Notes: generated by a model from the letters alone, not told the origin. A stretch of DNA of 13,918 nucleotides from an uncultured Pirellulales bacterium (GCA_964574885.1 CAZNQT010000061.1:1-13918); one strand, 5' to 3'; counted from the first letter of the stretch, positions 767-10,895 are shown. Numbers and translations: made by a program.

Positions 767-2587
767 ATGAGCGAGCAGAAATCTCCATCCACCGAGCAGC
801 AGGAATTAGCCCGTGGTTTACCGATGTTTTCCGCTTCGGATCCGGAGGCGCTGGCGGCAGAGAAAACCAGGCTCTCAGCCGTCCAAAATAAAGGCTTGCT
901 GACCCGCTGGAGAACCTATTTCTCCATGACCGGTCCCGGTTGGTTGCAGAGCGCCATGACGCTCGGCGCCGGCAGCGCGATGGCATCGTTGTTCTTGGGG
1001 GCGTATTATCAATATCGACTGTTGTGGATTCAGCCGCTGGCCATGGTTCTAGGTATCATTATGCTCTCGGCTATGTCGTATCAAACGCTCACCACCGGCG
1101 CCCGACCCTTTGATGCCATGCGAAAATTCATCCATCCCGCGATGGCCTGGGCCTGGGCCCTGGCGGCCTTGGCGGCGACTGTAATCTGGCATTTCCCGCA
1201 ATATGGTCTCGCCGCCGGCATGCTCGAAGACATGATCAAAGCGGCAACAAAATGGGAACCTACCGGTGCAAAACAAACCATTCTTTTATTGGCGATCGGC
1301 ATGGTGTTTCTGATCGTCTCCACCAAGATCACCTGGAACTACGAGGCGGGACATAAAGGTATCCGTATTTATGAAAAAGCCTTAAAGGGCATGGTCTGGA
1401 TGATCGTACTGGCGTTTGGCATCGTGGTGGTTTATACCACCGTACAGGGAAAGATTGCCTGGGGCCAGGTGTGCAAAGGATTTCTCCCCCTGCACATACC
1501 GACCGATTCGATGGGGATCAAAACGATCACCGGCGCCTTCAGTGCCGCGGTGGGAATCAATATGACGTTCTTATTTCCCTATACCCTGTTGGCGCGTGGG
1601 TGGAGTAAAGAGCATCGCGGGCTTTCCCGGTTTGATTTGATCTCCGGGATGCTGGTGCCGTACTGTCTGGCCACCTTGTTAATGGTAATTGCCACCGGAG
1701 GTACCATTTATCATACGCTGGAAAATCTGAACGTGAAAGATATTAAAGATCTTCCTGCTCTGGCGAAAAAGGTAACCGCCCAAGGCGCTCTAACGAATCC
1801 CGGTCCCAGCCGGCGACTCTGGCAGATGTTGGATCCAGACACGCAAACTCTCCTACAGGAAATCGCCCTGGCTAACGAAGCGACCGACGAACAAAAACAA
1901 GCGGTTTGTACGGCGCTGAATACCATCATCGCCAAACCGAATTTTTATACGGAAGAGGATTTCGCGAGCATCAAGGCAAAATTGCCCGTAAACACGAAAG
2001 ATATTCTTAAAAGAGATCAAAACCAATTGATCGACAAGGAAATTCGTTTACGAAATCGCCAAACTCTGGATACCGCCTTCCCGGAGAACATAAACGCATT
2101 ATCCTTACGAGTTTCCCCCACCAAGGCGGCCGGCATGTTTCAAGCGGTTGGTGTTACCCCATTTGTCTCCCGTTATATTTTCGGATTGGGCATACTGGGA
2201 ATTGTATTAAGCTCGATTACCCTGCAGATGTTGATGGCCGGTTTCGGCGCCTGCGAAATATTTAAATGGGAACCGGGCGGCAGAGCCTATAAGCTGGCCT
2301 GTCTGATCCCGGCGCCGGCCGTGCTGGGCGTAGTGCTCTGGAAGTATATGGGCACCTGGATTGCCATTCCGACTTCCGCGATCTGCGGCGTCATGCTGCC
2401 GATTGCCTATATCGGTTTTTTCCTGCTGAATAACAATAAAAAATATCTGGGCGACGCGACGCCGCGCGGCGGCAAAGCCGTATTCTGGAACCTCGGTATG
2501 GTAATTGCCATTGCAGCATCGATCGTCAGTGCCATTTATTTTCTGTATGCCGTATTTTATAAATGGTTGATACATCTATTCTCATAG
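767..2587 (+). CDS. Nramp/MntH-fold membrane transporter (606 aa) with substituted metal-binding residues and a ~140-aa hydrophilic insertion. Substrate unknown.
   Basis: RBS AAGGAG at 756-761. About 11 predicted TM segments. TM1 GPGWLQSAMTLGAGSAMASLFLGAYYQYRLLW aligns with the Nramp signature GPGFL..IAY.DPGN......AGA..GY.LLW, but DPGN is replaced by GAGS. In the TM6 region, AVGINMTFLFPYTLL aligns with A.IMPHN.YLHS, so Met becomes Asn and His becomes Thr. A long hydrophilic segment (aa ~325-465) lies between TM7 and TM8. Confidence 0.75.
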   Translation: MSEQKSPSTEQQELARGLPMFSASDPEALAAEKTRLSAVQNKGLLTRWRTYFSMTGPGWLQSAMTLGAGSAMASLFLGAYYQYRLLWIQPLAMVLGIIMLSAMSYQTLTTGARPFDAMRKFIHPAMAWAWALAALAATVIWHFPQYGLAAGMLEDMIKAATKWEPTGAKQTILLLAIGMVFLIVSTKITWNYEAGHKGIRIYEKALKGMVWMIVLAFGIVVVYTTVQGKIAWGQVCKGFLPLHIPTDSMGIKTITGAFSAAVGINMTFLFPYTLLARGWSKEHRGLSRFDLISGMLVPYCLATLLMVIATGGTIYHTLENLNVKDIKDLPALAKKVTAQGALTNPGPSRRLWQMLDPDTQTLLQEIALANEATDEQKQAVCTALNTIIAKPNFYTEEDFASIKAKLPVNTKDILKRDQNQLIDKEIRLRNRQTLDTAFPENINALSLRVSPTKAAGMFQAVGVTPFVSRYIFGLGILGIVLSSITLQMLMAGFGACEIFKWEPGGRAYKLACLIPAPAVLGVVLWKYMGTWIAIPTSAICGVMLPIAYIGFFLLNNNKKYLGDATPRGGKAVFWNLGMVIAIAASIVSAIYFLYAVFYKWLIHLFS

Positions 2588-2621
2588 AAAGTTCGGATTC
2601 GATTAAACTTGGGAGAGACCT

Positions 2622-3662
2622 ATGAAAGTATGGAATTTTGGCATCATGGGCGCGGGTCTGATCGCGGATTTTCACGCCCGCGCGATCGGTGATATCGAAA
2701 ACGCCCAACTCATCGGCTTTACCGATACGACCCCGGAAAAAGCCCGACAGTTGGCCGATAAGCATTCCTGCCGTGCGTTTGCGGATAATGAGGAATTATT
2801 GAATTGTCCGGATATTGATATTGTCACCATCGCCACTCCCAGCGGCGCCCACCTGGAACCCGCGGTAGCCGCCGCCCAGGCCGGCAAACACGTTATCTGC
2901 GAAAAACCGCTGGAAATCACGCTCGACCGCGTCGATGCCATGATCGCCGCCCACGAAAAAGCCGGTACCCTGCTCGGCGGCGTGTTCCAGAATCGATTCA
3001 ACGAAGCGATGATTCCCCTCCGCGAGGCGGTCCGGGCGCAGCGGTTCGGCAAAATTACCTTTGCCGGCGTCTATGTCCCCTGGTGGCGCGAGGAATCCTA
3101 TTACCAGAGCAGTTGGCACGGTGCCTGGAAACACGACGGCGGCGGCGCCTTAATGAATCAGTCGATCCACACGATTGACATGCTCTGCGATTTGATGCCG
3201 CCGGTCGAATCCGTCCAGGCCTACGCCGACCACCTCGCCCACGACATCGAAGCGGAAGATACCGCGGTCGCCGCCCTGCGGTTTACCAACGGCGCGCTCG
3301 GTTTGATTTACGGCACCACCGCCTCCTGGCCCGGCCAGTTCAAACGATTTGAAATCACCGGCGCCAAGGGCACCGTCGTGTATGTGGAAGACAGTTTAAC
3401 CGTCTGGCAGTTCGCCGAGGAAAAGCCGGAGGATGAAGAAATCCGCCAAAAATACGGCAGCATCCAAAACACCGGCGGCGGCGTAGCCGACCCCGCGGCA
3501 ATCTCCTATCAGGGCCACAGGAAAAATTTCCAGGCGTTTCTCAAAGCCCTCGAAACCGGAGGCGATTTCGAAATCTCCGGCGTCGAAGGCCGTAAGTCCA
3601 TCGAACTCATCCTCGCCATCTACCAATCCGCCAAAGAAAAGAAACTCATTCGTCTGACATAG
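2622..3662 (+). CDS. Gfo/Idh/MocA family NAD(P)-dependent oxidoreductase, cytoplasmic.
   Basis: N-terminal Rossmann motif GIMGAGLIADFHARAI and the family hallmark HVICEKPLEIT (the EKP motif). No signal peptide. It lies 34 nt after the Nramp-like gene, with GGGAGAG 6 nt before its ATG. Confidence 0.9.
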   Translation: MKVWNFGIMGAGLIADFHARAIGDIENAQLIGFTDTTPEKARQLADKHSCRAFADNEELLNCPDIDIVTIATPSGAHLEPAVAAAQAGKHVICEKPLEITLDRVDAMIAAHEKAGTLLGGVFQNRFNEAMIPLREAVRAQRFGKITFAGVYVPWWREESYYQSSWHGAWKHDGGGALMNQSIHTIDMLCDLMPPVESVQAYADHLAHDIEAEDTAVAALRFTNGALGLIYGTTASWPGQFKRFEITGAKGTVVYVEDSLTVWQFAEEKPEDEEIRQKYGSIQNTGGGVADPAAISYQGHRKNFQAFLKALETGGDFEISGVEGRKSIELILAIYQSAKEKKLIRLT

Positions 3663-3676
3663 GAAAAGAATATCTC

Positions 3677-5083
3677 ATGAAAATAGATATAACACCAGTA
3701 GCGGCTCAACTGTATTTTCTCCCCGTCCAAACCCGCGTGCCGCTCAAGTTCGGTCCGGAAACCCTGACCTCCGTCACCTGTGCGCGGGTCTGTTTGACCG
3801 TGCAGGATCGACCGGGTAAAACCGCCCAAGGCTGGGGCGAAACGCCCTTGAGCGTGCAGTGGGCCTGGCCCAGTTCGATCAGTCTGCAGGAGCGAACGGA
3901 CGCCATGCAGCAATTCTGTCAGTTCTTAACGGAGGTATGGGGACTTGTCGTGGACGACTGGGGGCATCCCCTGGAAATTGGGTATCAATTTCAGAGCGAT
4001 TTTTTAACCAGTACTTTAAAGAAATTTAATCTGGAGGAGCGCAAGGATCGAGAACCCCTGCCGCACCTAGCCGCTTTGATCTGCAACTCCGCTTTCGACA
4101 TTGCGCTGCACGATGCTTATGGAAGTCATTTGGAACAGGATGTTTATACTACCTACAACTCGAATTTCATGAACGCCGACTTGGAGAAATATCTAACTCC
4201 CGCGGAGGGAGCGAACATATCGTTCGCGGGTAAATATCCCGCCGATTTTATGATCTTCCCTCCGCCGCAGCAACTGTCCGCCTGGCACCTGGTCGGCGGG
4301 AAAGATCTATTAGAGGAATCCGAACTCACCGGCGATGAACCGGATGATGGCTATCCGGTCTTGTTGCCGGACTGGATCCGACGCGACGGCTTGACTTGTC
4401 TTAAAGTGAAGCTCCGCGGTAACGATGCCGAATGGGATTATGATCGCTTAGTCAAAGTCGGCGCCATCGCGCTGAAACATGACGTCCTCTGGCTCACCAG
4501 CGATTTCAACTGTACCGTCAGCGATCCCGCCTACGTAAACGAAATCCTCGACCGCCTGACGATAGAACACCCTCGGATCAGTCAGATGATCCTCTACGTC
4601 GAGCAGCCATTCCCCTACGACCTGGAGGCCAACCAGATCGACGTCCACAGCGTTTCGGCTCGCAAACCTCTGTTTATGGATGAAAGCGCCCACGACTGGA
4701 AATTTGTCAAGCTCGGTCGCACGCTGGGTTGGACCGGCGTCGCTTTGAAAACCTGTAAAACCCAGACCGGCGCCCTGTTGAGCCTCTGCTGGGCCAAGGC
4801 TCACGGTATGACGCTGATGGTACAGGACCTGACCAATCCCATGCTCGCTCAAATCCCCCACGTTCGCCTGGCCGCTCACGCCGGCACCATCATGGGTGTC
4901 GAAACCAACGCCATGCAGTTTTACCCCGCCGCCTCCGAACTCGAAGCGAAAATCCATCCCGGCATCTATCAACGCCGTAACGGCCGGGTGGACCTCTCCT
5001 CAGTCCACGGCCCCGGCTTCGGCTACCGCCTCGACGAAATCCGACGCGAATTACCCCCACCCGCCGCTTCCTGCTCCCGGTAA
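3677..5083 (+). CDS. Enolase-superfamily protein of the mandelate racemase / muconate-lactonizing-enzyme type (468 aa), candidate sugar-acid or sugar-lactone cycloisomerase or dehydratase.
   Basis: The KxK motif LKVKL is present. Candidate metal ligands are D in LTSDFNC, E in YVEQPF and D in FMDESAHD. A second-half Lys lies in ALKTCKTQTG. There is an N-terminal capping-domain-like region. The gene starts 14 nt after the Gfo gene, so it is in the same operon. Confidence 0.8.
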   Translation: MKIDITPVAAQLYFLPVQTRVPLKFGPETLTSVTCARVCLTVQDRPGKTAQGWGETPLSVQWAWPSSISLQERTDAMQQFCQFLTEVWGLVVDDWGHPLEIGYQFQSDFLTSTLKKFNLEERKDREPLPHLAALICNSAFDIALHDAYGSHLEQDVYTTYNSNFMNADLEKYLTPAEGANISFAGKYPADFMIFPPPQQLSAWHLVGGKDLLEESELTGDEPDDGYPVLLPDWIRRDGLTCLKVKLRGNDAEWDYDRLVKVGAIALKHDVLWLTSDFNCTVSDPAYVNEILDRLTIEHPRISQMILYVEQPFPYDLEANQIDVHSVSARKPLFMDESAHDWKFVKLGRTLGWTGVALKTCKTQTGALLSLCWAKAHGMTLMVQDLTNPMLAQIPHVRLAAHAGTIMGVETNAMQFYPAASELEAKIHPGIYQRRNGRVDLSSVHGPGFGYRLDEIRRELPPPAASCSR

Positions 5084-5126: not shown

Positions 5127-6497
5127 TCATTTGTATTTACGGAGAAAATATCGATATTGATGGTAAGACAGGCCCACGTCGCGGGCGGCCTGGGCCTGGT
5201 TGCCGGCAGCCTGCTCCAGCGCTTCCGTGATGAGGTGTTTTTTAAAGGCTTCCACCTTTTCGTTAAAGGTATTGCCTCTTATGGCAGTGGACGTTTCCGG
5301 TAAAAAGCCCAAATCCTCCGGAGTAATTTCATTGGTGGTATCGCGATAGGCGGCACGCTCGATAATATTTTTCAGTTCGCGGACATTGCCGGGAAAATCA
5401 TACTTTTCCAGGACGTCCAAAGCGGTTTTACTGAGCCGTTTGCCGCCGAGGGAAGGAATTTCCTGCATAAATTGAGATAGAAAGTGTCGCGCCAATAGGG
5501 GGATGTCTCCTTCTCTCCGGCGTAGTGGCGGCACCGAGATGATCTCAAAACTGAGGCGATCATAGAGGTCGCGTAGGAATTTGCCTTCCTCCATCTTCTT
5601 TTTCAGATCGACATTAGTGGCGGCGATGATACGCGTATTGACCTGAATCTCCATTGATCCCCCTACCCGGGTAAAGGTGCCGTATTCCACCACGCGGAGA
5701 ATCTTTTGTTGGAACGGAAGCGACATATTGCCAATTTCATCCAGAAACAGTGTGCCGCCGCTGGCCAACTCAAATTTGCCGTGCACCTGGTGATCGGCGC
5801 CGGTAAAAGCGCCTTTTTCGTGGCCAAACAACTCTGCTTCCAGCAAGGAATCCGGAAAGGCCGAACAATTGACCACCACCATGGGCCGACCGCTGTCACC
5901 GGCGGCAGTATGGATCGCCCGCGCCACCAACTCTTTCCCCGTTCCGCGCTCACCGAGAATCAACACTGGACGTGGGATGGTCGAGACGCGTTCGATCTGT
6001 TCGAGAACTTTTCTGATCTGAGGTGAGTCTCCGCCGATCCGGAACCGCTGCCGGGCCGTTTCCTGGAGCAGCATATTTTGCTCCCGAAGGATTCGGTTGC
6101 GATGGATTAGATTCAGATGGGGGCGGAATTTATTCAAAAAGGTGGTAACGCGATCGCCCAGTTTACCGGTCCGAACAAGAAAATCGTTGGCGCCGGCTTG
6201 AATGGCCTGGGAGACAATTTCCACATCTCCTCGCTCGGCCACGATCACAATCGGCAGGTCCGGAAATTCCCGACGAATCATCGGCAATAATTCAATGCCG
6301 CTCGACTGCCCATCGCCGATTTCATAATCCATAATCAGCAGATCCCCCGTCAATCCGCTGCGCAATTTCTCCAACAGACGCTGAGCGGAAAACACTCTCT
6401 CAATTTGACAGTCATTCTTGGATGCCTGCGTGAACGCTTCGATGAGAGTATCGAGCCGATTTTCAGGCGTATCAAGAAAGATAAATTTTCTATTCAT
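5127..6497 (-). CDS. Sigma-54-dependent transcriptional activator (NtrC-family response regulator: receiver, AAA+ sigma-54 interaction and Fis-type HTH domains).
   Basis: The receiver domain carries a phospho-acceptor-like Asp (LLIMDYEIGD). Walker A is GERGTGKE. The GAFTGA motif (EKGAFTGA) defines sigma-54 contact. Walker B is LFLDEIG. The C-terminal HTH is AARDVGLSYHQYRYFLRKY. The track ORF begins at a TTG (6521). The ATG at 6497 (MNRKFIF...) is the more likely start. Confidence 0.9.
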   Translation of the reverse strand: MNRKFIFLDTPENRLDTLIEAFTQASKNDCQIERVFSAQRLLEKLRSGLTGDLLIMDYEIGDGQSSGIELLPMIRREFPDLPIVIVAERGDVEIVSQAIQAGANDFLVRTGKLGDRVTTFLNKFRPHLNLIHRNRILREQNMLLQETARQRFRIGGDSPQIRKVLEQIERVSTIPRPVLILGERGTGKELVARAIHTAAGDSGRPMVVVNCSAFPDSLLEAELFGHEKGAFTGADHQVHGKFELASGGTLFLDEIGNMSLPFQQKILRVVEYGTFTRVGGSMEIQVNTRIIAATNVDLKKKMEEGKFLRDLYDRLSFEIISVPPLRRREGDIPLLARHFLSQFMQEIPSLGGKRLSKTALDVLEKYDFPGNVRELKNIIERAAYRDTTNEITPEDLGFLPETSTAIRGNTFNEKVEAFKKHLITEALEQAAGNQAQAARDVGLSYHQYRYFLRKYK

Positions 6498-6652
6498 AAT
6501 GCATACGATCCAGAAATACAACTGTGCTAGAAATCCAATATCAATTCAACCTATCAGATCAGTACACCGCGGTCAAGGATTTATGATACTTTTCACTACA
6601 TATATAGTAAAAACTCCCATGTATTTCCGCTATAATCCAAGGTACATATTTT

Positions 6653-6679
6653 ATAAGTTATTATTACAAAATAACTTAT
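6653..6679. promoter_or_regulatory. Perfect 10-bp inverted repeat (ATAAGTTATT-N7-AATAACTTAT) immediately upstream of the sigma-54 promoter. It is a candidate activator, IHF or repressor site.
   Basis: Arms are at 6653-6662 and 6670-6679. The IR centre lies 30 bp upstream of the -24 GG, in the divergent intergenic region between the EBP gene and the SPFH operon. Confidence 0.4.
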
Positions 6680-6694
6680 GATCTTTATATCTTT

Positions 6695-6710
6695 TGGCAT
6701 GATAATTGCG
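6695..6710 (+). promoter_or_regulatory. Sigma-54 (RpoN) -24/-12 promoter driving the SPFH operon.
   Basis: TGGCATGataaTTGCg matches TGGCACG-N4-TTGCA. The GG at 6696-6697 and GC at 6708-6709 have the canonical 11-nt register. It is oriented toward the SPFH gene (ATG 6781, RBS AAAGGAG 6768-6774) and sits beside a divergently encoded sigma-54 EBP. Confidence 0.6.
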
Positions 6711-6780
6711 ATTTTCCCTTTCCAGACGGCTATACGGAAGTTTGATGCCTAGGAAATTAATGAATTGAAAGGAGCCCATT

Positions 6781-7809
6781 ATGAAAAAGTTATCCATTCT
6801 TTTATTCAGTCTAGTAGCCCTGGGACTGATCGGCAGTGGATGCAAACCGTATAAAGGGGAAAAATTTGAAGAAGTTCAGAATCACGAAACGGCGTTTGTC
6901 ATACCGTATGAAGGCGATCTGGCCAAACAAGAGAAATTGAAATCTCTGGACGCCCTGGAATCCTATCAGGTAGCGATTAAACGAATCGATATTCCCCGAC
7001 GCTGGAAGAAAACCGGTCGTTTGTGGTGGGCTGGGGAGTGGATCGACGTCGTCAAGGTGATCAAGGTGGATCGCTCGCCCGTGACTCGGGAGTGGACCGC
7101 CAGCCGGGATACCGGTACCAGCGTTCGCAACGAAGGGATCTGGATCGAAAGTGAAGACAGCGTTTCCTTTAGTACGGGATTTACCTGTACGGCGTTCATT
7201 AAGGAGGAAGACGCCGCCCGGTTTTTATATCACTATCCCAACGGCCAACTCGCCGTCATCATGGATAACCAAGTCCGCGCTGAAATTCAATCCAAGGCAG
7301 CGGAAATCGCCGCCCTGTACAAAATGGATGAATTGCGGGCGAAAAAAGCGGAAATCATCCAGGGAGTACGCGAACATGTAATTCCATTCTTTAATCAGAC
7401 AGGCATCACGATTACTACCATCGGTATGTTTGGCGGTTATACGTATGAAAATCTGGAGATCCAAAAAGCGATCGACAACACCTTTGTGGCCCAGCAGGAA
7501 AAAGTAATTGCGGCGGCAATGTATGAGGCGCAGGAAGACAAGAATCGCCGCATTGAAAAGGAAGCTGAAGCTCAAAAAACCGCTTCGGTCATTAAAGCCA
7601 ATGGTGAAGCTGAAGCAATTACCATTGTTGCCCGGGCCGCCGAAAACGCTCAAAAGAGTCCGGCCTTTCTGCAACTGCGTAAGTTGGAAGTGGAATCTCT
7701 GCGTATCGAAAAATGGGATGGCCGATATCCCAGTCATTACTGGAACACCGCGAATACCGACGGCCTGGGAATTATCGTCAACACACCGAACCTAACGGAG
7801 AGTGAATAA
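6781..7809 (+). CDS. SPFH/Band-7 (stomatin/prohibitin/flotillin/HflKC-like) domain lipoprotein.
   Basis: Signal peptide with lipobox MKKLSILLFSLVALGLIGSG|C. The SPFH core is followed by a coiled-coil region rich in E, A, Q and K (EAQEDKNRRIEKEAEAQKTASVIKANGEAEAITIVARAAENAQ) that is typical of the family. Confidence 0.8.
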   Translation: MKKLSILLFSLVALGLIGSGCKPYKGEKFEEVQNHETAFVIPYEGDLAKQEKLKSLDALESYQVAIKRIDIPRRWKKTGRLWWAGEWIDVVKVIKVDRSPVTREWTASRDTGTSVRNEGIWIESEDSVSFSTGFTCTAFIKEEDAARFLYHYPNGQLAVIMDNQVRAEIQSKAAEIAALYKMDELRAKKAEIIQGVREHVIPFFNQTGITITTIGMFGGYTYENLEIQKAIDNTFVAQQEKVIAAAMYEAQEDKNRRIEKEAEAQKTASVIKANGEAEAITIVARAAENAQKSPAFLQLRKLEVESLRIEKWDGRYPSHYWNTANTDGLGIIVNTPNLTESE

Positions 7810-8081
7810 TGAAAGCGAAGATTATTAATATGGTATGGTTACTGATCGTGTTATTTGCTTTGAATTTCATATTGCATCAGTGGGCCATACCTCACAACAC
7901 GACGGATCTGGCACTGCAGCAAATGAACGAAGATGGTTCGCGGGAACAGCTACGGGCCTGGGAGGAACTTTCCAACTGGATTACCCTGGGGTTATCGATA
8001 GCGGGATTGGCGGGGATGTTACTCATTTGGTTTAAACCCGACGCCCGGCCCTCGCCATCGGGAACAGGCTTTAGGGCTTAA
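7809..8081 (+). CDS. Small (90 aa) two-TM membrane protein translationally coupled to the SPFH gene, possibly a minimal NfeD-like partner.
   Basis: The start overlaps the SPFH stop (TAATG at 7807-7811). It has two hydrophobic helices (VWLLIVLFALNFIL and ITLGLSIAGLAGMLLIWF) flanking a ~35-aa polar loop. SPFH genes are commonly paired with small membrane partners. Confidence 0.55.
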   Translation: MKAKIINMVWLLIVLFALNFILHQWAIPHNTTDLALQQMNEDGSREQLRAWEELSNWITLGLSIAGLAGMLLIWFKPDARPSPSGTGFRA

Positions 8082-9457
8082 AGCGACCAGGGAGTTCGCA
8101 TGGGTGTGCCGAGCATACGGTTTGCCTGCTCATCGCCGATACACTGTTCCTTCTCAGCGTCCCAATGCAGTTTCCGCTGCAACTTCATGGCGATGTTGCC
8201 CAGGTGACAGACGCTCGTCGAGCGATGTCCCACTTCGATCGGCGTAATCGGTTCGTTCCCGTTCTTGATGCAATCCAGGAAATTGCGGTGATGGTCGGTA
8301 CTCTTGTAGAGGTGGATTTCACTGGGCCCGATCACGGAATCTCGTAATGATTCCGGATAGGTCTTGCAGGTTCGCCAATTCGCCTCGATCCAGCCCTCCG
8401 TCCCTTCGAACCGATGCGTGGTACTCTCCGAGCTGGTCTGGCAAATCACATCGACGCCGTTGGCGTACCCCAATCGAAAATGAACGTACGTTGCCGTCGA
8501 AAACAATCCGTCTTTGGGGAATACTCCTCCGAGATCTTCCACTACCACTGGGCCGGTTCGGTCGGTCCCCATCGCCCACTGTACGATATCGAGTACGTGC
8601 ACTCCCAGGTTGGTCGTCTGTCCGCCGCAGTGATCCCAGACGAACCGAAACGTATAATGCGTACGGTCCCGATGATAGGGCGCCCAGGGCGCCGGCCCCA
8701 GCCACATCTCGTAATCCAGCGTCTTCGGGATCGGCTGACTTTCCCAGGCGCTCGCCGCCGAGGTACGATTGTTCGGACCCACCCAGCACAGTACGCGCTG
8801 GAGTGTACCAATCCGACCGTTCCGGATCAGTTCGCAGACGTGACGGAGATGCTGATTCGCCGAACGATGATGCGTTCCGGTCTGAAACACTACACTGTGC
8901 CGTTGGACCGCCTCCGCCATGGCCCGACCTTCCGCGATGGTCAGACTCAATGGTTTTTCCCCGTAAATATGCTTACCCGCTTTCGCCGCCTGGATCGCCA
9001 GAATCGCATGCCAGTGATCCGGCGTGGCGATCATCACCGCATCGATATCCCCCCGCGACAGCAAGTCCCGAAAATCCCCGTACCCGTCGCAACCTTTGAA
9101 AGTCCCCTTACTGCGCTCGTCGGCGTAATGTTTATTCACCCGTTCCTGTGCCGGTTCGCGTCCCAGGTACCCCCCTTTGTTATACCAGTGATTGTAAATG
9201 TTTGTACCCTGTTCCGGATCGCAGACCGCTACCATTTGCACATCTTTATTGGCCAGGAAGCTCATCATATTATTCGTGCCCATGCCGCCCAAACCAATGC
9301 AGCCCATCACGATCCGATTACTGGGCGCGTTCGCGCCGAATACCGAGGAGGGCACTACATACGGCGCCGCCATTACCGATGCCGCCACCGCGCTCGAACG
9401 CTTTATGAATTCCCGCCTACTTAATTTATTCTTCTGATTGGGGAAAGGCTCGGACAT
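8078..9457 (-). CDS. Tat-exported Gfo/Idh/MocA family oxidoreductase, a periplasmic glycoside-3-dehydrogenase-like enzyme.
   Basis: Twin-arginine signal SRREFIKRSSAVAASVMAAP. The dinucleotide-binding motif is MGCIGLGGMG. The hallmark is HIYGEKPLSLT. The preferred start is the ATG at 9457, where RBS AGGAGAGG is ~9 nt upstream. The track start at 9484 is a GTG abutting that RBS. Confidence 0.9.
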   Translation of the reverse strand: MSEPFPNQKNKLSRREFIKRSSAVAASVMAAPYVVPSSVFGANAPSNRIVMGCIGLGGMGTNNMMSFLANKDVQMVAVCDPEQGTNIYNHWYNKGGYLGREPAQERVNKHYADERSKGTFKGCDGYGDFRDLLSRGDIDAVMIATPDHWHAILAIQAAKAGKHIYGEKPLSLTIAEGRAMAEAVQRHSVVFQTGTHHRSANQHLRHVCELIRNGRIGTLQRVLCWVGPNNRTSAASAWESQPIPKTLDYEMWLGPAPWAPYHRDRTHYTFRFVWDHCGGQTTNLGVHVLDIVQWAMGTDRTGPVVVEDLGGVFPKDGLFSTATYVHFRLGYANGVDVICQTSSESTTHRFEGTEGWIEANWRTCKTYPESLRDSVIGPSEIHLYKSTDHHRNFLDCIKNGNEPITPIEVGHRSTSVCHLGNIAMKLQRKLHWDAEKEQCIGDEQANRMLGTPMRTPWSL

Positions 9458-9483
9458 TATCATTCCTCTCCTGAACGATATCA

Positions 9484-9545
9484 CCCCTGCGCAGGCAGGG
9501 GTCCAGGAACATCTTTATCGACTGGATTCCCGCCTGCGCGGGAAT
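9484..9545. repeat. Two tandem GC-rich hairpins between the DUF1080 gene stop and the Tat-Gfo gene start. They look like a terminator or a recurrent palindromic motif.
   Basis: Hairpin 1 is cccctgc-gcag-gcagggg (9484-9501). Hairpin 2 is attcccgc-ctgc-gcgggaat (9526-9545). Both share the core CCTGCGC(A)GG. The spurious translation of this region reads PAQAGVQ...LDSRLRGND. Confidence 0.45.
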
Positions 9546-9572: not shown

Positions 9573-10895
9573 TTATTTATCTTTCTTCACAATCGGAATC
9601 AATACGATATTACGGAATTCCATTGGGGACCCTTCCGCCTGCAGGCAGATCTTGCCGGGCGTCTCCCAGCATTCCGTCGCCGTATTTTGCAGCAAGCCGT
9701 TGACGTAGAGTTCCAGGTTACTTTTGTCCAAATTTATTTCATACTCGTTCCATTGACCGATTGGCTTTTCGTTGGATTTATGCATTTTCCCCGTATGGCG
9801 CCCGTTAGTCCGTGAGGGGTCCACCTTCATGGGGAATTTATCGATATTCCAGATATCGCCCATGGCATCGGATTGCCCCTGGGCTTCGATGGATCGAGGC
9901 CACACCTTGTCCGGGCCAACCATTCGCAGTAGTACGCCCCCATTGCCCTTGCTGATATGCCGCAACTGCATCCGCAGTACGTAATTCGTATAATCTTTGG
10001 TTGTACGGATATACCCGGTAGGTCTGCCTTTATCGACTAAAATGCCGTCTTTCACGAACCAGGCGGCGTCCTCATTTTCACTGGAAAAGGTCCAGCCGTC
10101 GAGATTCTCGCCGTTGAACAGCCGGACGGCTTTGCCGAAATGATCCGGTAACTGTTTAATCCGAATGTCCTTGAAATCTACGATCATCGGCGAGCCTGCG
10201 TGTATCTGCAGCGCCAGTACGCCTTCCAGCAGCGCCCCCTTGCGATCGTTCTTATCTTTGGGATCAACCACCCGGTCATTATCAATTAATTCCATGGTCT
10301 CATAGCCGTTGAGATATTGAATCAGATGATTCCCCCGTGCGACGATCTTATATTCATTCCAGTCTTTCAGTTTATAATAGCCGGCTTTTTTCAGGGCTTC
10401 TACGTCCGAAACTTTACCGACGACGTTCTTGTTGCCTTTTTTATCGATTTCCATGATATCGCCGACGTTGACCAGCCAGCCTCGACCACTTTCATGATAT
10501 AAAAATCCCACCTTGCCCGGTGTATCTTCCACTTCCGCCTGGTAGCCGTTAATGCGCCATTTCTCATGTTCTTTACTGCGGTACTGGATGCCTGAGTTGC
10601 CGTTTTGAATCCGGAATTTAATTTTGAGAATGAAATTCTTGAGCCGCCCGCCCCGCCAGACGCAAAAGGTATTTCCCCGCGCCGGATTTTCCGGCGTCGT
10701 CTGACCTCGAATCGCGCCATCGACGACCTTCCACAACCGCGGATCGCCGTCCCAGCCGGTCAGATCCTTGCCGTTGAAGATCCGGGTAAAGCCCGGCTCC
10801 AGTTTTTCCTCCGCTGCCTGACTCCGGCCGTTCGTGATGCCAATGACCATCCCCATCGCTAACAGCAAACCGATTTGATTCCATTTCCCATGCAT
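9573..10895 (-). CDS. Secreted protein with two tandem DUF1080 / 3-keto-disaccharide hydrolase (PF06439-like) domains.
   Basis: Signal peptide MHGKWNQIGLLLAMGMVIGITNGRSQA. Two repeats each open with the family motif (FNGKDLTGWDGD...W.V.DG and FNGENLDGWTF...WFVKDG) and close with ..Q.HaGSPM.F..I.I. or LQAEGSPMEFRNIVLI. A strong RBS GGAGGTG lies 4 nt before the ATG. Confidence 0.85.
   Translation of the reverse strand: MHGKWNQIGLLLAMGMVIGITNGRSQAAEEKLEPGFTRIFNGKDLTGWDGDPRLWKVVDGAIRGQTTPENPARGNTFCVWRGGRLKNFILKIKFRIQNGNSGIQYRSKEHEKWRINGYQAEVEDTPGKVGFLYHESGRGWLVNVGDIMEIDKKGNKNVVGKVSDVEALKKAGYYKLKDWNEYKIVARGNHLIQYLNGYETMELIDNDRVVDPKDKNDRKGALLEGVLALQIHAGSPMIVDFKDIRIKQLPDHFGKAVRLFNGENLDGWTFSSENEDAAWFVKDGILVDKGRPTGYIRTTKDYTNYVLRMQLRHISKGNGGVLLRMVGPDKVWPRSIEAQGQSDAMGDIWNIDKFPMKVDPSRTNGRHTGKMHKSNEKPIGQWNEYEINLDKSNLELYVNGLLQNTATECWETPGKICLQAEGSPMEFRNIVLIPIVKKDK

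Follow-up and report, generated by a model that had tools for sequence, protein, structure and literature searches.

A divergent sigma-54 enhancer-binding protein with a degenerate receiver-like domain and its probable target, an SPFH lipoprotein operon, in Planctomycetota

A stretch of 13,918 nucleotides (nt) from an uncultured Pirellulales bacterium (GCA_964574885.1, CAZNQT010000061.1:1-13918), a complete contig called the window below, carries three adjacent genes that probably form a self-contained regulatory module, in which a sigma-54 enhancer-binding protein (EBP) would drive the divergent, sigma-54-promoted operon of an SPFH lipoprotein and a 90-amino-acid (aa) protein with two transmembrane (TM) segments. 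This arrangement had been pointed out from inspection of the DNA alone (hereafter the sequence-only reading); its gene content, conserved motifs, fold and co-occurrence in other genomes have now been established computationally. What is new here is a sigma-54 envelope module with a new class of effector, the SPFH protein, and with a pseudo-receiver activator. In the literature, no description was found of sigma-54, RpoN or EBP control of SPFH, flotillin, stomatin or band 7 genes. The EBP clade appears to be dedicated to SPFH scaffolds generally, whether lipoproteins, flotillin-like proteins of ~700 aa or flotillin types of ~540 aa. The positions of the features are collected in Table 1.

The EBP and SPFH genes are separated by 283 bp of 33% GC. 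This region carries TGGCATGATAATTGC at 6695-6709 (+), which is the sole exact match to TGGCAY-N5-TTGC on either strand of the window. Such matches are expected 0.10 times in the window, and at least one was present anywhere in 20 of 200 shuffles. The element sits 71 nt 5' of the SPFH start codon on the correct strand, and its GG and GC doublets stand 10 nt apart upstream of a gene, as is required of a sigma-54 promoter (consensus TGGCAC-N5-TTGCW). The near-consensus -24/-12 promoter that had been claimed for the divergent intergenic region is thus borne out at the level of sequence. Transcription is predicted to start near position 6720.

Further upstream lies an inverted repeat, the putative activator site. 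Its centre is ~95 bp 5' of the -24 element and ~100 bp away from the start codon of the EBP. An alignment of ten intergenic regions reveals a conserved block at a constant offset of -105 to -73 from the -24 element, with the consensus ATGTGAnAAATTTCACTAnATGTAGTGAAAA; the version found in Bremerella volcania is a perfect palindrome with arms of 16 bp, GTGAGACTTTTCACTA-CATC-TAGTGAAAAGTCTCAC. The strict pattern TTCACYA-N3-7-TRGYRAA occurs in 8 of 94 loci, each time in the EBP-SPFH intergenic region and nowhere else; the window has one match to the activator site, for 0.05 expected. Its position and symmetry fit an EBP upstream activator sequence, so that it is likely to be the activator-binding site, and the C-terminal HTH_8 domain of the EBP is its presumed reader. 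The distance from the site to the EBP start codon is ~100 nt in the window and 20 to 50 nt in the other loci. In the window, a sigma-70-like -35/-10 pair for the EBP gene (6611->6583) overlaps the site, but this is a match to consensus only, the scan for sigma-70 and terminator consensus sequences having given nothing above shuffles. The nearness of the activator site to the EBP start and the overlapping -35/-10 match make autoregulation of the EBP plausible. Between activator site and promoter stands a perfect AT-rich inverted repeat, whose end is an RTTAYG block that the alignment shows in most orthologous loci; repeat and block may constitute a bending site or a site for an architectural protein. 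A search of Rfam with the segment 6400-8200, at E values up to 1, returned no match, hence no known leader RNA.

These elements recur elsewhere. Relatives of the window SPFH protein were collected from 53 genome loci (individual loci are designated L002, L003 and so on). Upstream of the SPFH gene and divergent from it stands an EBP ortholog (53-70% identity) in 12 planctomycete loci other than the window, among them that of a cultured isolate, Bremerella volcania. A GG-N10-GC element is found at the equivalent position in each EBP-linked intergenic region examined, and the GGC...TGC columns are invariant in ten of them (L002-L005, L007-L009, L011, L034 and L046); the variants of the element are given in Table 1. 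The control of the SPFH/small-protein operon by a sigma-54 promoter and the EBP, as the sequence-only reading proposed it, is therefore favoured by the conservation of promoter, upstream repeat and gene pairing in orthologous loci. Poor conservation of the promoter hexamers, which that reading had named as grounds for refutation, was not observed. In L002, the closest relative of the window, a single promoter, TGGCCC-N5-TTGCA, stands before three genes, which encode in this order a flotillin-like SPFH protein, the SPFH lipoprotein and the two-TM protein. The first gene (L002:2520-4721, +) encodes a flotillin-like protein of ~700 aa with an N-terminal TM segment and a Band_7 match at 1e-16, of which the window has no counterpart.

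The association can also be approached from the regulator. An alignment of the N-terminal 150 residues of the EBP, scanned against metagenome contigs, retrieved 39 loci whose EBPs show 50-67% full-length identity. An SPFH-family gene is the divergent neighbour of the EBP in at least 17 of the ~30 loci with enough upstream sequence, and three classes of SPFH protein are represented (Table 1); in many of these loci, the related EBP has the gene of the ~700-aa flotillin-like protein as its only divergent target. The association of the EBP clade with SPFH genes is thus general and not peculiar to the window. In the remaining loci the neighbours are small membrane proteins or FHA/PP2C genes, or the available sequence shows nothing that can be recognised. 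Many of the intergenic regions contain related tandem motifs TGAGA-N5-7-TCTCA along with TGGCAC-N5-TTGN elements. Six loci (L081, L088, L058, L057, L056 and L059) have a good TGGCAC -24 element and a -12 element without the canonical GC (TTCC, TTGA, TTGG or TCTC); these may be unusual sigma-54 promoters, or the promoter may be wrongly assigned there. In L064 (1545-2417, -) and L073 (1599-2471, -), a protein with an FHA domain (FhaA-like) is encoded after the flotillin-like gene, and L085 has genes for an FHA-domain protein and for a PP2C phosphatase (3722-4588 and 1928-3700, both -), which lie downstream of the EBP-linked promoter and share one orientation. These genes hint that Ser/Thr phospho-signalling is attached to the module in one subclade. 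A profile of the EBP N-terminal domain, run against a set of 5.8 billion proteins, returned only 18 proteins, mostly fragments, and is uninformative on taxonomy.

The regulator is an NtrC-family activator with the GAFTGA motif, as had been read from the DNA. It matches Sigma54_activat (PF00158) at 1.4e-62, AAA_lid_14, HTH_8 and, more weakly, Response_reg (2e-11), and its domains are ordered receiver (REC), AAA+ with GAFTGA, and Fis-type helix-turn-helix (HTH). The Walker A, Walker B and GAFTGA motifs are intact; with HTH_8 and the conserved upstream inverted repeat as its predicted site, the protein has the hallmarks of a bacterial enhancer-binding protein. The longest open reading frame (ORF) starts from a TTG at 6521 (5127-6521, -). 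The ATG at 6497 (MNRKF..., 456 aa) is preferred, since it agrees with the start and length of the closest ortholog, that of L002. PADLOC gave generic RtcR/PspF AAA+ matches for the EBP and none for the SPFH or partner protein; as these matches are generic only, a known defence system is not indicated.

The receiver-like domain is degenerate. Aligned with CheY, the window EBP keeps Asp9 and Asp57, has a non-acidic residue at the D13 position, and carries Ala in place of T87 and Arg in place of K109; it thus lacks part of the set (D12, D13, D57, T/S87, K109) that characterises a phosphorylatable receiver. When 41 clade members (the window and 40 relatives) were aligned with CheY, the acceptor position, D57, was Asp in ~15, including the window and L002, His in 9, Pro in ~15 and another residue in 2. 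Throughout the clade the second residue of the acidic pocket is missing, T87 is mostly Ala and K109 is Arg or Leu, and the Bremerella ortholog has no Response_reg match on record. Since orthologs with His or Pro as acceptor have the same operon, site and promoter, phosphorylation appears to be dispensable for the function of the clade. The receiver-like domain of most relatives, to judge from these residues, cannot be phosphorylated, so that a classical kinase is a less likely input than a protein or ligand contact that reports the state of the membrane.

The SPFH protein has 342 aa. Its SPFH/Band-7 identity, proposed earlier, was upheld by a match to Band_7 (PF01145) of 34.0 bits, for a cut-off of 23.6. 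Its N-terminus, MKKLSILLFSLVALGLIGSGC, resembles a signal peptide followed by a lipobox-like sequence, ...GSGC, with Cys21. This cysteine, just after the hydrophobic N-terminus, is invariant in 21 homologs, as is Cys136. Compared with the lipobox [LVI][ASTVI][GAS]C, 20 of the 21 homologs have Gly at -1 and many have L, V or I at -3, while the window protein reads G-S-G-C. In the in-frame fusions of the two-TM segment to the SPFH protein (L015:5734-7041, L094:6001-7368 and P0068), the Gly-Cys pair is still invariant although it is internal, after two TM helices; either an internal lipobox is processed there, or the cysteine has another role, for example a disulfide with Cys136. An AlphaFold model built on the 21 homologs has a signal helix, beta-rich and alpha/beta SPFH1/SPFH2 domains, a coiled-coil helix of 67 residues (225-291) and a second helix (294-311). 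With Foldseek, ~300-350 columns of this model align to human prohibitin (2.7e-11), stomatin, HflK/C in the FtsH complex, erlin, QmcA-YbbJ, flotillin and the major vault protein, the E values for the prohibitin, stomatin, HflK/C, erlin, QmcA and flotillin chains ranging from 2.7e-11 to 1e-7. Because these alignments run over the full length, the protein has the architecture of the SPFH proteins that form cages. By sequence, a family profile gave marginal matches only against the PDB (best E 0.022, prohibitin), and NCBIfam gave no family match for this protein or for the 90-aa protein. An exhaustive HMMER scan collected 903 representatives of the subfamily at 50% identity, 377 of them at E values up to 1e-30; it is a compact and divergent subfamily whose named members belong to Planctomycetota and Verrucomicrobiota.

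The second gene of the operon is predicted to be translationally coupled to the first through a TAATG stop/start overlap at 7807-7811, an overlap already noted in the sequence-only reading, as was the two-TM nature of the 90-aa product, which indeed has two hydrophobic segments (residues ~4-27 and ~57-75). They enclose a predicted periplasmic loop with the conserved motif P..t.dLAlqQmneDgsreqLR. The protein matched no family in Pfam (E values up to 0.1), NCBIfam or PADLOC. A homologous segment, with TM1, a loop with P...LAxxQ...(D/S)......R, and TM2, accompanies the SPFH gene in most related loci, in three arrangements: downstream of the SPFH gene (the window and L002), as a separate upstream ORF (L003, L005, L007, L009, L034 and L046), or as the N-terminal part of an in-frame fusion with the SPFH protein (most Verrucomicrobiota loci, and Pirellulaceae such as Bremerella). 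Permutation and fusion of this kind are classic evidence of a physical partnership, here between the two-TM segment and the SPFH protein. The fused proteins run from TM1 through the loop, TM2, a basic linker and a third hydrophobic segment to the Cys and then the SPFH domain, an order from which we infer that the SPFH domain lies on the side of the loop, that is, in the periplasm, anchored to the cytoplasmic membrane.

These observations can be assembled into a mechanism. An oligomer of the EBP would bind the inverted repeat through its C-terminal HTH and, by means of its GAFTGA loop and ATP hydrolysis, would open the complex of the sigma-54 holoenzyme at the -24/-12 promoter, leading in vivo to sigma-54-dependent transcription of the bicistronic SPFH and two-TM operon. 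The activator site adjoins and probably overlaps the EBP's own promoter, so that the EBP would probably regulate itself as well. The SPFH lipoprotein, given its fold, would assemble into a ring or cage like that of prohibitin or HflK/C, and its signal peptide, lipobox and natural fusions to a two-helix anchor would place it on the periplasmic face of the cytoplasmic membrane. The small two-TM protein would be its obligate membrane partner, probably enclosed by the cage or docked to it. The signal, presumably one of membrane stress, would enter through the degenerate receiver-like domain.

Several facts weigh against this mechanism. The -12 region of the window ends in G, where the consensus has A or T, and -24 or -12 elements are weaker in some related loci (TTGA, TTGG, TTCC). 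The SPFH and two-TM unit is found without the EBP in every Verrucomicrobiota locus and in several Planctomycetota loci, which makes the regulator an add-on that the scaffold does not require, and ~11 of the ~30 assessable loci of the EBP clade have no SPFH gene in the available sequence, so that either the clade is not exclusively linked to SPFH genes or its targets are further off. As to the protein, the window lipobox has Gly instead of Leu at -3, Cys21 could pair with the invariant Cys136 instead of being lipidated, and the structural model is of moderate confidence, with a predicted local distance difference test score (pLDDT) of 73.8. One might ask whether the adjacency of the genes is incidental, the SPFH operon being read from a sigma-70 or extracytoplasmic function (ECF)-type promoter, TGGCAT-N5-TTGC being a chance match and the EBP regulating other genes. 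The shuffles, one in ten of which yielded an exact match somewhere, and the EBP-less Verrucomicrobiota units speak in favour of this; but the match in the window falls precisely in the intergenic region, properly oriented and at promoter distance, the doublets and the inverted repeat keep a fixed spacing in every EBP-linked locus examined, and the clade stands beside SPFH genes in many independent loci, all of which makes an incidental adjacency very improbable. It is also quite improbable that the three genes are a recently acquired mobile cassette inside a sugar-catabolic locus, as the sequence-only reading had suggested. The greater AT content invoked at the time holds for the intergenic region; in the coding sequences, GC at third codon positions (GC3) is 0.54-0.59 for the three genes, the lowest among the larger genes of the window, but only modestly under the others (0.61-0.71, with some at 0.61-0.62). 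No other locus shows synteny between the module and the flanking sugar and oxidoreductase genes. Yet no integrase, transposase, tRNA or flanking repeat was noted in the window (ORF listing and Pfam), and the closest homologs of the module, 75% and 70% identical, the former being the best named relative of the SPFH protein, come from a metagenome-assembled genome of Sedimentisphaerales, regarded here as the same order-level lineage, as vertical descent predicts. Moreover, a GFO_IDH_MocA gene is also found near the Bremerella module, and GFO/IDH/MocA and 3-keto-disaccharide-hydrolase genes are common in planctomycete genomes. More serious is the proposal that the EBP is an ordinary response regulator, phosphorylated on Asp57 by an unlinked histidine kinase, with the module as the output of a conventional phosphorelay. 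The Response_reg match agrees with it, as does the retention, in the window EBP and ~15 of 41 relatives, of both the acceptor Asp and an Asp that corresponds to CheY D12, and the window EBP itself might conceivably be phosphorylated. The altered pocket residues of that same protein argue the other way, as do the His and Pro acceptors of orthologs that keep the target operon, the binding site and the promoter; and no histidine kinase was found in the window (Pfam) or next to the module in the loci examined, which, with the degeneracy of the receiver across the clade, renders the nearby cognate kinase envisaged earlier doubtful. A conventional phosphorelay is thus possible, but we doubt it.

Two further alternatives concern the effector, and they are best judged against the systems that they invoke. 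The SPFH lipoprotein could act as HflK/C do and regulate a membrane protease, for instance FtsH, in which case the operon would tune proteolysis and would not provide a scaffold for membrane integrity. Structures of HflK/C-FtsH (9cz2, 7wi3 and 7vhq) are among the best fold matches, over the full length of the protein; HflK/C, too, is a periplasm-facing SPFH cage on the inner membrane, as is predicted here, and some homologs carry the JGI label 'regulator of protease activity HflC'. Nevertheless, there is a single SPFH gene and no K/C pair, a lipobox-like sequence stands in place of the N-terminal TM helix, a protease gene is linked in no locus examined, and the conserved partner is the 90-aa two-TM protein. 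In addition, the sequence similarity to HflK/C is negligible and that to solved SPFH proteins in general marginal. A role of this type is therefore unlikely. That the module is a divergent, true phage-shock protein (Psp) system is scarcely credible. In the Psp system of E. coli, pspF is divergent from its targets, upstream activator sites lie by its promoter, the target promoter is of the sigma-54 type and PspA is an oligomeric scaffold. The likeness to pspF-pspABC drawn by the sequence-only reading stands as an analogy of layout with pspF-pspABCDE: a divergent EBP, activator sites near its own promoter, a -24/-12 promoter and an effector predicted to be an oligomeric, membrane-associated scaffold. 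The top NCBIfam match of the EBP is, moreover, the PspF equivalog (TIGR02974). The likeness goes no further. The score for TIGR02974, 340.5 bits, misses the cut-off of 443.55 (NF008622: 282.5 against 529), the NtrC and NifA models score nearly as high, and all equivalogs are sub-threshold. The EBP has an N-terminal domain, a degenerate receiver, which is absent from PspF; the effector is an SPFH protein and predicted to face the periplasm, unlike the cytoplasmic PspA/ESCRT-III effector of Psp; and no PspA/IM30, PspB or PspC homolog was found in the window or among the related-locus proteins scanned. When complete E. coli genomes were searched with the module by megablast, nothing matched; the window is not enterobacterial.

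Other systems offer partial parallels to the module. In the SPFH-NfeD pairs (E. coli QmcA-YbbJ, PDB 8z5g; B. subtilis YuaF-FloT; Pyrococcus PH1510-PH1511), an SPFH scaffold likewise has a small membrane protein as its operon partner, to which it is sometimes fused. However, the partner described here has no NfeD/OB-fold domain and no Pfam match, and with 90 aa is too small for an OB fold; the SPFH protein is predicted to be lipid-anchored whereas theirs are TM-anchored; and a dedicated sigma-54 activator is present. NtrC-family response regulators such as NtrC, ZraR, AtoC and GlrR have the same domain order as the EBP, which differs from them in being far under the equivalog cut-offs, in the clade-wide degeneracy of its receiver and in having no linked kinase. 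In P. aeruginosa, PA3729 is presumably SPFH-like. The B. subtilis pspA-ydjGHI operon includes YdjI, an SPFH protein reported to link PspA to the membrane (PMC10948618), and a sigma-54 promoter predicted from sequence is reported for P. aeruginosa bacABCDEF, which includes the PspA-like PA3731 (PMC10948618, citing Scholz et al. 2021, PMC8581546). As far as these accounts go, both operons are precedents tying SPFH proteins to envelope-stress modules, but they are centred on PspA and described without a dedicated divergent EBP and conserved site; the module described here lacks PspA and has the SPFH protein as its main cargo.

Taken with the three SPFH classes found next to the EBP clade, these parallels allow a broader suggestion, which we advance tentatively and with more doubt than belief: an undescribed circuit of envelope homeostasis in planctomycetes, in which pseudo-receiver activators would sense the membrane and switch on three classes of SPFH protein on both membrane faces, as an SPFH-based counterpart of the phage-shock response. 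The activators might possibly sense its state because the scaffolds, or the small partners of these, feed back on them directly, by analogy with PspA acting on PspF. A dedicated activator with a recognisable site and a sigma-54 promoter that is tightly off by default implies a specific inducing signal. The promoter/activator pair thus offers a rare regulatory handle on bacterial SPFH function and makes an enigmatic family approachable by experiment, the more so as the module is present in the cultured, experimentally accessible Bremerella volcania; the complete genome OY771506.1 carries it too. Found downstream of the SPFH gene, upstream of it or fused to it, the two-TM partner is a candidate for a new class of clients or anchors of SPFH proteins, and the pseudo-receiver clade adds to the sigma-54 activators that have seemingly escaped from phosphorelay control. 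SPFH proteins are common among bacteria (flotillins, HflK/C, QmcA, YqiK), and the structures of their cages have recently been solved. Studholme and Dixon are said to have surveyed, in 2004, the EBPs of Pirellula (R. baltica) in silico. The rpoN gene is reported to be present and expressed in the planctomycete R. baltica (PMC2754498), and the physiological triggers of bacterial SPFH proteins are described as still mostly unknown (PMC12005517).

Table 1. Features of the window and of related loci (positions in the window unless a locus is given)
Feature	Position or locus	Strand	Basis or remark
Sigma-54 EBP gene	5127-6497	-	ORF listing, Pfam/NCBIfam
Receiver-like N-terminal domain, aa 1-125	6123..6497	-	Response_reg; CheY alignment
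AAA+ sigma-54 interaction domain	5547..6032	-	PF00158
Walker A, GERGTGKE	5931-5954	-	Intact
Walker B, LFLDEIG	5730-5750	-	Intact
GAFTGA, aa 229-234	5796-5813	-	Intact
C-terminal Fis-type HTH (HTH_8)	5133..5252	-	PF02954, E 1.3e-6; ...GLSYHQFRYY... kept in orthologs
Putative upstream activator site	6583..6616		Inverted repeat TTTTCACTA (6590-6598)-N6-TAGTAAAAA (6605-6613)
AT-rich perfect 10-bp inverted repeat	6653..6679		ATAAGTTATT-N7-AATAACTTAT; between activator site and promoter
Sigma-54 type -24/-12 promoter, TGGCAT-GATAA-TTGCG	6695..6710	+	GG 6696-6697, GC 6708-6709
Shine-Dalgarno sequence, AAGGAG	6769..6774	+	6 nt before SPFH start codon
SPFH protein gene	6781-7809	+	ORF listing, Pfam/NCBIfam
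90-aa two-TM protein gene	7809-8081	+	ORF listing
Nramp-like transporter	767-2587	+	ORF listing, Pfam/NCBIfam
GFO/IDH/MocA oxidoreductase	2622-3662		ORF listing, Pfam/NCBIfam
Enolase-superfamily protein	3677-5083		ORF listing, Pfam/NCBIfam
Glycoside-3-dehydrogenase-like oxidoreductase	8078-9484	-	Pfam/NCBIfam; convergent with the module
3-keto-disaccharide hydrolase protein	9573-10895	-	Pfam/NCBIfam
EBP-SPFH loci besides the window	L002-L009, L011, L034, L046, L094		L094 is Bremerella volcania, CP036289.1
-24/-12 variant TGGCAC-N5-TTGCA	L005, L034
-24/-12 variant TGGCAC/T-N5-TTGCT	L046, L011
-24/-12 variant TGGCAC-N5-CTGCT	L003
-24/-12 variant CGGCAT-N5-TTGCC/G	L007, L008, L009
-24/-12 variant CGGCAT-N5-ATGCA	L004
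-24/-12 variant TGGCCC-N5-TTGCA	L002
-24/-12 variant CGGTAC/T-N5-ATGC	Bremerella
Divergent neighbour of EBP: SPFH lipoprotein	L063, L072, L091
Divergent neighbour of EBP: ~700-aa flotillin-like protein	L057, L060, L064, L073, L076, L082, L089, L092		At least eight loci; N-terminal TM, Band_7; homolog of the extra gene of L002
Divergent neighbour of EBP: ~540-aa Band_7 (+Flot) protein	L058, L062, L081, L088		Tandem SPFH pair in L062 and L081
Divergent neighbour of EBP: N-terminus of flotillin-like type	L071, L080

The SPFH loci without an EBP have no other conserved regulator upstream; their neighbours are unrelated (ABC ATPase, thioredoxin-like, Cu/Zn superoxide dismutase, bPH_2 and others). 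In L015 (4857-5417) and L019 (4877-5413), a periplasmic Cu/Zn superoxide dismutase precedes the fused SPFH gene, and in these and ~10 other Verrucomicrobiota loci, where neither an EBP nor a -24/-12 element was found, a conserved protein of ~350 aa follows it (L015:7085-8179), in which an OB-fold and an HD domain seem, by eye only, to be present. In a Sedimentisphaerales locus without an EBP, a bPH_2 membrane protein is encoded just 5' of the fused SPFH gene (L013:4035-4778, +).

In the window, the stop codons of the two-TM gene and of the convergent oxidoreductase gene overlap by 4 nt (8078-8081), so that an intergenic terminator would have no space, and a search for a hairpin resembling one found none at this place. 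The window also encodes two proteins of no assigned function (ORF listing and Pfam/NCBIfam). The putative transporter upstream, of 606 aa, is atypically long for an Nramp-like protein; its Nramp match is weak, partial and split into two stretches, far under the MntH equivalog cut-offs. The convergent GFO/IDH/MocA protein matches a BT_2158-family model below threshold, and its gene adjoins that of a protein with two 3-keto-disaccharide hydrolase domains. The pairing of these two genes suggests a route for the degradation of 3-keto-glycosides.

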